IMG/VR virus record: IMGVR_UViG_2690316131_000021
Length of the DNA: 20,803 bases
From: a virus
Taxonomy: Duplodnaviria > Heunggongvirae > Uroviricota > Caudoviricetes
Direction: 5' to 3' (one strand)
A program made the translations under genes and the position numbers. Under the pieces are notes generated by a model that was not told the origin of the DNA, did no database searches, and worked only from the letters and a program-made list of their open reading frames with translations. Position 1 is the stretch's first letter, and every line of letters begins with the position of its first letter. Of the stretch, positions 11,002 to 11,472 are shown one piece after another.

Positions 11002-11472
11002 ATGACAAAATCATGGAGCGTACCTTTTCCTGAATCAGAAACTGAACATGATGGAATGCCTGTTTTCTGGAGATTCCAGGCGACAGTTGAAGAAGATGGG
11101 ATAAAAATATTCGCACTTCAATATATAGCTTTTCATCAGACAGAGCATTATGCATGGTTGGTTCCTGCGCATTGGATTGTTAATTTTAAACCAGCACCAA
11201 ATCAGTGGTTACAGGAATGGAAACAAAGGAGAAATAGATATGCAATTAAGAAAGTAGCAAAAAATGCAGAAAGATCTTTTGCATTCCCAACGAAGAAACT
11301 TGCCATTGAGAGTTTATTGCACCGGAAGAAATACCATTTAATGAGAATCAAACAAGATTTGGCTGTTGTATCAACTCTTGTTGATGGGATGAAGAATATT
11401 GATACATCAACACCAGATATTGAATATAACTTTGGACACAACCAAGAAACAGAAAACTGGGTGTTTTATTAG
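11002..11472 (+). CDS. Unknown AT-rich 156-aa protein in the ral/sieB position
   Basis: ORF with GAGGTGA SD; no family recognised; visibly AT-rich. Confidence 0.6.
   Translation: MTKSWSVPFPESETEHDGMPVFWRFQATVEEDGIKIFALQYIAFHQTEHYAWLVPAHWIVNFKPAPNQWLQEWKQRRNRYAIKKVAKNAERSFAFPTKKLAIESLLHRKKYHLMRIKQDLAVVSTLVDGMKNIDTSTPDIEYNFGHNQETENWVFY

Follow-up and report, generated by a model that had tools for sequence, protein, structure and literature searches.

What is the small AT-rich gene that is located between N and cIII in this lambdoid prophage, and what could it contribute to the phages that carry it? The DNA analyzed here, which we refer to as the window, is a stretch of 20,803 nucleotides from a virus of the class Caudoviricetes (IMG/VR record IMGVR_UViG_2690316131_000021). 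It covers the early region of a lambdoid prophage, with genes for Q, NinG, antirepressors, Dam, P, O, cI, N, gam, bet, exo, ea22, and int. A previous reading of the letters alone, here called the sequence-only reading, described an open reading frame (ORF) of 156 codons behind N as an orphan in an accessory slot, expressed early from pL, and named host takeover, anti-restriction, and exclusion as roles often served by genes in this place. It also suggested that the structure of the protein be predicted and searched, and that the slot be compared across lambdoid prophages. The features of the locus are listed in Table 1.

Table 1. Features of the N to cIII interval and its surroundings, with positions in the window
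Feature	Position	Strand	Basis
pL-like promoter, TTGACT-17-TACTAT	10283-10311	+	Consensus scan only
boxB-like hairpin GCGCTGACAAAGCGC, putative nutL	10380-10394	+	Read from the sequence
N antiterminator gene, 127 aa	10560-10943	+	PF25694 N_peptide (E = 2.1e-15), phrog_271; corresponds to HK97 N
Left cassette boundary, conserved, including Shine-Dalgarno (10992-10998) and ATG (11002-11004)	10974-11004	+	Homology with phage 21, Sf6, and Stx2-II
gp45-family coding sequence, 156 aa	11002-11472	+	PHROG, nucleotide identity, selection
Right boundary, conserved, with two hairpins (11487-11514, 11515-11556) and terminator	11482-11604	+	blastn
Intrinsic terminator GCCCTC-loop-GAGGGC followed by T-run, homologue of lambda tL2a	11577-11603 (stem-loop 11577-11594)	+	Terminator scan
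cIII gene, with thermoregulator leader (11650-11708)	11663-11827	+	Rfam RF01804 (88.5 bits)

The ORF starts with an ATG and ends with a stop codon at 11470-11472, and the Shine-Dalgarno sequence GAGGTGA is located 3 bases upstream of the start. Its GC content was 0.36, and 0.29 at third codon positions, as compared to 0.47 in the flanking 3 kb on each side. The maximum Kyte-Doolittle mean over 19 residues was only 0.56, and the protein is therefore without a membrane segment. The strong ribosome-binding site, the low GC content, and the lack of a membrane segment had all been pointed out previously, and all were confirmed here. At the base composition of the ORF itself, the probability of 156 codons without a stop was 3.7e-6, and about 0.01 ORFs of such length would be expected by chance across the whole window.

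Orthologues with amino acid identities of 57% to 70% were identified in prophages and phages of Salmonella, Cronobacter, Pectobacterium, and Rosenbergiella and in one metagenomic contig. The proportion of synonymous differences between the orthologues was 0.69 to 0.90, which means that synonymous sites are saturated, while the proportion of nonsynonymous differences was 0.18 to 0.30; the single dN/dS value that could be computed for the intergenus comparisons was 0.15. Since synonymous change was saturated and nonsynonymous change was low, the frame is protein-coding and has evolved under purifying selection. Length and start have been preserved among the relatives, which share 39 invariant positions, the Shine-Dalgarno sequence and the start of the gene are conserved, and every orthologue compared had a GC content below that of its own flanks. 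We conclude that the ORF is a real gene.

The nucleotide sequence was 99.0% identical to gene 45 of phage HK97 and 98.5% identical to L0079 of phage 933W. The match to phrog_1636, annotated with 'unknown function' in PHROG, spanned the full protein (residues 1 to 156 of 156; E = 1.4e-111). Judged by sequence similarity, the ORF is a member of the HK97 gp45/933W L0079/PHROG 1636 family, and it is hereafter referred to as gp45. HK97 Gp45 (NP_037731/AAF31125), 933W L0079 (AAD25424), and orf57 of Stx2 phage 86 represent the same gene, which encodes 156 amino acids. Only one or two amino acid changes were observed relative to the HK97 and 933W proteins, such as H107, which is an arginine in HK97. 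The place is also the same in HK97 and 933W, between N and the terminator that precedes cIII or ssb.

The gene is thus already known and has been catalogued as hypothetical since the HK97 and 933W genome records, for which reason the finding is not new as an object. All annotations of gp45 read 'hypothetical protein', and full-text searches of the literature for HK97 gp45, L0079, phrog_1636, and 4 protein accessions returned nothing relevant. A 671-bp query around the gene matched 332 phage records, 78 of which covered the gene in full, and gp45 was present in 88 phage records. The full-length carriers include HK97, 933W, Stx2 phage 86, H-19B, BP-4795, Min27, and many Stx1a and Stx2a phages. 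At an identity of at least 95%, gp45 was also identified in 598 of 5426 complete E. coli genomes (about 11%), with up to 4 copies per genome. A collection of 72,556 plasmid records contained 11 matches at the same threshold of at least 95%, all in records predicted to be non-mobilizable, which we interpret as prophage-like or mis-assigned entries. When one genome per species was scanned with a pattern, only 7 loci were identified, all of which were from Enterobacterales. The previous description of the gene as an orphan that matches nothing was thereby overturned, both by these close matches and by the distant relatives described below.

The boundaries of the module were mapped by local blastn searches against lambda, phage 21, Sf6, Stx2-II, PhiR12_1, and Dewey. 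On the left side, the homology with phage 21, Sf6, and Stx2-II stopped exactly at 11004, and ORF c61 in Stx2-II begins at the same ATG as gp45. The Shine-Dalgarno sequence and the start codon therefore lie in the shared flank, with the recombination junction directly behind the start codon, and serve alternative cassettes as well. On the right side, the homology restarted at 11481/11482, 10 bases past the stop codon of gp45, and continued through 11604. The cassette itself therefore comprises 476 bp, from 11005 to 11480. The right boundary was 95% to 97% identical to sequences in lambda (97%; lambda positions 33923-34045), phage 21, Sf6, and Stx2-II, and its counterpart in lambda is located between ral and ea10. 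In the Sf6 record, this segment is labeled 'bsq4 boundary sequence' and its terminator 'homology to lambda; tL2A', and the HK97 record annotates a putative terminator at the position equivalent to 11577-11603. It was also noted that the right-boundary sequence is common to HK022. The sequence-only reading had placed a tL1-like terminator behind the gene; the intrinsic terminator was indeed found, but by homology it was not tL1-like, since it falls within the segment that matches lambda 33923-34045 and corresponds to tL2A in Sf6.

The non-coding sequence of about 180 nucleotides between gp45 and cIII (11473-11650) was highly structured, with a minimum free energy of -61 kcal/mol and a folding z-score of -5.4. 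The first of its 2 hairpins is a perfect hairpin of 12 bp, and both are located ahead of the terminator. The ea10/ssb gene, which separates the terminator from cIII in lambda, phage 21, 933W, and Stx2-II, was missing in the window, because the sequence from 11605 runs on into the cIII leader of lambda. At this junction, the homology skips from about position 33923 in lambda straight to about position 33522.

The contents of the slot varied among the phages examined here, which confirmed its previous designation as an accessory slot. It contains sieB, orf28, and ral in lambda, and sieB/esc, ral, orf78, orf87, and gene 17 ('allows growth on Fels2 lysogen') in P22. In phage 21, ral is located between the same boundaries as the gp45 cassette, and the slot is occupied by gene 36, ral, and gp34 in Sf6. 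ORF c61 in Stx2-II and a gene for an Nmad5 protein of 207 amino acids in PhiR12_1 were identified between the same flanks. Dewey contained gp45 and 3 small ORFs. The gene order N, gp45, and terminator, followed by cIII or ssb, was observed in HK97, 933W, Dewey, and the metagenomic loci. With regard to the comparison of lambdoid prophages that had been suggested, gp45 was present or absent among phages that were otherwise near-identical.

Two arrangements showed that the slot can hold arrays of cassettes rather than a single one. Phage phi296 contained ral and gp45 in tandem (positions 2236-2971 of locus L026), and E. coli 2013C-3342 contained a 100% identical gp45, followed by a gene for a hypothetical protein of 322 amino acids and then by cIII (positions 1201-2783 of locus L035). 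Because phi296 carries both genes, gp45 is not a simple or strict allele of ral. It is thus an interchangeable unit of a multi-gene accessory array.

The pL-like promoter was the only sigma-70-like site identified by the consensus scan upstream of N and gp45, and it is located past the terminator that closes the operon of cI and the gene in the rex slot. The boxB-like hairpin downstream of the promoter is presumably a boxB of the P22 type. A simple consensus scan identified no promoter-like site between N and gp45, and the 58-nt spacer between the 2 genes contained no intrinsic terminator or terminator-like hairpin (folding z-score -0.44). The first intrinsic terminator identified by the terminator scan behind the pL-like site was the one in the right boundary. 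Since neither a promoter-like site nor an intrinsic terminator lies between the 2 genes, gp45 should be transcribed together with N from pL. Its expression is accordingly expected very early in lytic growth, but not in a repressed lysogen. The previous placement of the gene in the pL operon is consistent with this arrangement. The scan covers intrinsic terminators, and a Rho-dependent equivalent of tL1 may be located ahead of gp45.

The sequence-only reading had left open whether gp45 and the gene in the rex slot, on the other side of N, are independent cargo or functionally linked. The rex-slot gene (9065-10063, plus strand) starts with a TTG codon directly after cI, encodes 332 amino acids, and belongs to PHROG 6191, which is of unknown function. 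The protein had no match in Pfam, NCBIfam, or PADLOC, and the gene was not matched in any of 50,697 phage records by megablast, which detects near-identical nucleotide sequences. It is rare in E. coli, where only 4 records covered at least 80% of the segment from 8000 to 14000 in the window. By comparison, 78 of the 50,697 records carried the full gp45 gene beside other rex-slot contents, such as gp48/49 in HK97 and stk in 933W. A functional link was therefore rejected, and the 2 genes were regarded as independent cargo. The rex-slot gene is a candidate for cargo that is expressed in the lysogen. A strong GC-rich terminator was identified directly behind it (10071-10088).

Several other elements were identified in the window. 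A full-length sok antitoxin RNA of the hok/sok type (Rfam, 118 bits) was located at 455-629 on the minus strand, adjoining the Q gene (660-1169, minus strand). Rfam matches to the C4 antisense RNA, isrK, and the c4 a1b1 target sites were identified at 3408-3606 on the minus strand, upstream of 2 antirepressor-type genes on the same strand (1883-2608 and 2680-3354) of the ANT/KilAC and ORF6N/P22_AR_C types. Together, this segment and the 2 ORFs look like a P1/P7-style RNA-controlled antirepressor module in the nin region of a lambdoid phage. A gene for a Dam methyltransferase was located at 3812-4336 (minus strand). Furthermore, a match to sRNA-Xcc1 (Rfam, 78 bits) at 17254-17337 on the plus strand overlapped the 5' end of a second ORF6N/P22_AR_C antirepressor-like gene (17252-18034, plus strand), which is located between ea22 and int.

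To return to the gp45 protein, no match was identified in Pfam, NCBIfam, or PADLOC, and PDB sequence searches with 2 profiles of the family were also negative. A profile of 22 close homologues was searched against 1.84 billion representative sequences (E <= 1e-3) and recovered 93 proteins, of which about 70 were 125 to 170 amino acids long with sequence identities of 19% to 29%. The distant relatives occur in diverse temperate and virulent phages. Within a family of 48 members, 40 matched PHROG 13631 and 22 matched PHROG 25384, both of which are of unknown function, and none of the 48 members matched Pfam. The comparison of the gp45 clade with a distant clade of 13 members yielded an hhalign probability of 99.3% (E = 2.7e-20). 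Domain fusions suggested by 2 proteins (P0054 and P0071) were false positives caused by repeats or low complexity; no real fusions were identified in the family, which consists of stand-alone proteins.

A structure predicted with AlphaFold from the close homologues only had a pLDDT of 65.5, whereas a model based on the 48 sequences reached a pLDDT of 93. The predicted protein is soluble and consists of a single domain with an antiparallel sheet of 3 to 4 strands (residues 19-55 and 83-86), 2 short helices, a 33-residue helix (residues 98-130), and a conserved C-terminal tail. Structure prediction and search, as recommended previously, thus produced a confident model, and it had no relative among the PDB structures. 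Foldseek searches against the BFVD models identified relatives in many other phages (E = 6e-7 to 4e-4, TM-scores of 0.5 to 0.66), some of which we assume to be virulent, N4-like phages or large myophages. PHROGs 13631 and 25384 and BFVD models such as those for proteins of Erwinia phage phiEa2809 (A0A0A0YXB3) and Achromobacter phage phiAxp-3 (A0A0K2FI07) share the fold of gp45 and are distantly homologous to it, with identities of 15% to 29%. Unlike the gp45 clade, the members of PHROGs 13631 and 25384 and the BFVD relatives lack the N-terminal motif SWxVPFPES and the C-terminal motif YNFGHNxETExW, and they are uncharacterized.

Only A101 was invariant across the wide family, while the start methionine, G33, a glutamate (a glutamine in the gp45 clade), and K87 were nearly invariant, and no conserved catalytic constellation was observed in the alignment of the 48 sequences. 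Residues 74 to 118 contained 15 lysines and arginines and only 2 aspartates and glutamates (pI 11.5), while both termini were acidic. The isoelectric point was at least 8 in 43 of the 48 members. The basic residues were conserved at positions 83, 84, 87, and 91, and at positions 108, 109, 112, and 115, which are spaced one helical turn apart. This spacing suggests that they form a single binding face. Three further leads were also followed with hhalign and rejected. These were a DNA-binding domain of the AP2/integrase-arm type, defined by a helix next to a sheet of 3 strands and by the motif RxxLGxFxTxEEA as compared to RFAFxTKExA here (probability 0.4%), the lambda Ea10 protein (0.1%), and the Sf6 gp34 protein.

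The genomic contexts of the relatives were diverse. In a metagenomic lambdoid contig, a relative was located directly behind a diverged allele of N, and in a Cronobacter prophage between cIII and a different diverged N. In Rosenbergiella, it heads an operon for RecT, YqaJ, and SSB, and in Pectobacterium, it adjoins xis/int. We examined 12 contexts outside the E. coli lambdoid group, including that in the virulent-type Salmonella phage NX263. Genes for replication or recombination were located within 4 kb in 7 of these, with DnaB (twice), RecE, AAA_24 together with DUF3799, a pol III beta-like protein, DnaT_2, and RecA_dep_nuc as the neighbors. Anti-restriction-type genes were present in 4 of the 12 contexts, namely a DNA methyltransferase (Pantoea LIET2), Lar, Nmad5, and MT-A70 with Dam directly behind the relative; the methyltransferases are of the orphan type. 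In one context (metagenomic contig SRR23853049_5237, positions 4001-4384 of locus L033), the relative was a lone gene on the opposite strand between the genes for the small and large terminase subunits. This moron-like insertion shows the family to be mobile as an autonomous unit of one gene.

The results show a dispensable, horizontally shuffled, stand-alone phage protein of the early operon that is basic and apparently non-catalytic. We tentatively propose, with somewhat less than even confidence, that gp45 is an early, non-enzymatic, stoichiometric binder with a candidate role in counter-defence or host takeover. We favor this explanation because the slot-mates of known function mostly act in counter-defence (Ral, P22 gp17, and probably Nmad5). 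The AT-rich cassette in the variable slot would be transcribed from pL behind N, ahead of the first intrinsic terminator, and the protein would be made very early in lytic growth and be absent in the lysogen. It would most likely act by stoichiometric binding rather than by catalysis, and the conserved basic residues K83/K84/K87/R91, together with a stripe along the long helix (R108-K109-H112-R115), may provide the face for binding. A macromolecule of the host or of a resident prophage, or a nucleic acid, could be the target, and as a result a defence would be blunted or a host function taken over. Judging from the position and the neighborhood of the gene, the previously suggested roles in host takeover, anti-restriction, and exclusion are plausible. 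The earlier observation was thus confirmed, and its interpretation was supported in part.

A broader version of the proposal, which we consider doubtful, is that gp45 is the most thoroughly sampled member of a structurally new, phage-wide family (PHROGs 1636, 13631, and 25384) of immediate-early basic proteins that neutralize nucleic-acid-targeting defences of the host or of prophages, by other means than DNA mimicry (Ocr, ArdA) or methylase activation (Ral). Such proteins might coat or mask the nucleic acid of the phage, or clamp a defence nuclease or sensor. In that case, most Stx1 and Stx2 phages as well as HK97 would hold an unrecognized anti-defence gene right behind N.

The main rival explanation is that gp45 uses the same basic surface to bind nucleic acids, as an accessory in the DNA metabolism of the phage or in the regulation of its early genes; it might, for instance, aid replication or recombination as a DNA- or RNA-binding protein, or tune early transcription. 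The basic core and the high isoelectric points across the family would fit such a function, as would the neighbors of the distant relatives. Some are located just upstream of genes for DnaB-type helicases, one follows an AAA_24 gene and a gene for a DUF3799 exonuclease, another adjoins RecE and a replication initiator, and yet another heads an operon with genes for a 'DNA binding protein' and a pol III beta-like protein. In the lambdoid phages, gam, bet, exo, and ea10/ssb also belong to the pL operon in which gp45 is located. However, early regions are rich in replication genes anyway, and the neighborhood therefore says little. Furthermore, lambdoid phages that are nearly identical and retain the same genes for recombination and replication differ in whether they carry gp45, which means that it is not needed by them. 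The lack of similarity to known DNA-binding folds, including the AP2 and Ea10 comparisons above, and the relative inserted alone between the terminase genes also argue against this explanation, which we regard as rather unlikely.

It is less probable still that gp45 is a prophage gene for defence or superinfection exclusion, analogous to SieB or to the genes in the rex slot, which would guard the lysogen or the infected cell. The presence of sieB in the same slot in lambda and P22, a low GC content of the kind that is typical of morons, and the solitary relative on the opposite strand between the terminase genes, which is the classic layout of a moron, are all consistent with such a role. On the other hand, gp45 should be silent in a repressed lysogen, because it has no promoter-like site of its own and is located on the pL strand behind N. 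Moreover, the protein has no membrane segment, unlike SieB, and no match in PADLOC, and structural relatives occur in phages that we take to be strictly virulent, to which the defence of a resident lysogen would not apply.

Finally, the suggestion that the ORF is no functional gene, and rather a chance or decaying frame within an AT-rich spacer, is in keeping with its sole annotation anywhere as 'hypothetical', but has been effectively refuted by the high-confidence fold obtained from co-variation and by the saturation of synonymous sites with little nonsynonymous change across genera, in addition to which an ORF of this kind would arise by chance with a probability of about 4e-6, the Shine-Dalgarno sequence and start have been kept, and 598 of the 603 matching E. 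coli records have a place that covers at least 80% of the gene.

The gene is widespread and is carried by HK97, 933W, H-19B, and many other Stx1- and Stx2-converting phages. If gp45 acts in counter-defence, it would add a new fold and a new target to the anti-defence repertoire and would matter for the spread of Shiga-toxin phages and for their host range. If it does not, gp45 would be an unremarkable accessory gene of a familiar mosaic slot. What has been added here is the exact structure of the cassette, the identity of the terminator, the place of gp45 in a wider family, a high-confidence model of a fold that has no solved relative, candidate residues, and a mechanism that can be tested.

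How does gp45 compare to the known systems? No similarity in sequence or fold was observed to any characterized anti-defence or defence protein in PADLOC or among the solved structures. AntiDefenseFinder has been run by others on phages that carry gp45, and the gene was left unflagged (PMC12502783). The screen of 200 accessory genes by Silas et al. included ral and the ral-region gene orf184, while no sequence of the gp45 family was present (bioRxiv 10.1101/2023.04.06.535777, Supplementary File 3). With regard to the features of morons, gp45 has the lower GC content described above, its terminator belongs to the conserved flank, and no promoter was identified by the simple consensus scan.

SieB of lambda and P22 is encoded in the same slot, between N and ral, and on the opposite strand in the records used here. 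The P22 record gives sieB a promoter of its own, whereas gp45 is preceded by no promoter-like site. SieB is membrane-associated, and gp45 differs from it in having no membrane segment and no sequence match. P22 gp17 (PF17420) is a small soluble accessory protein with a role in counter-exclusion. Its gene, like gp45, is the last one in the pL operon ahead of the terminator upstream of c3/cIII. Homology between the 2 proteins was rejected (hhalign probability 2.2%; no Pfam hit, and different Pfam and PHROG assignments). Ral (restriction alleviation) of lambda and phage 21 shares the slot and its boundaries, the strand, and the operon with gp45, and the same time of expression is therefore expected, but Ral contains only 66 amino acids and is unrelated in sequence, with no Pfam, PHROG, or NCBIfam match between the two. 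Under the preferred explanation, gp45 would be an accessory factor for counter-defence or host takeover, of the same class as Ral and P22 gp17, yet unrelated to them.
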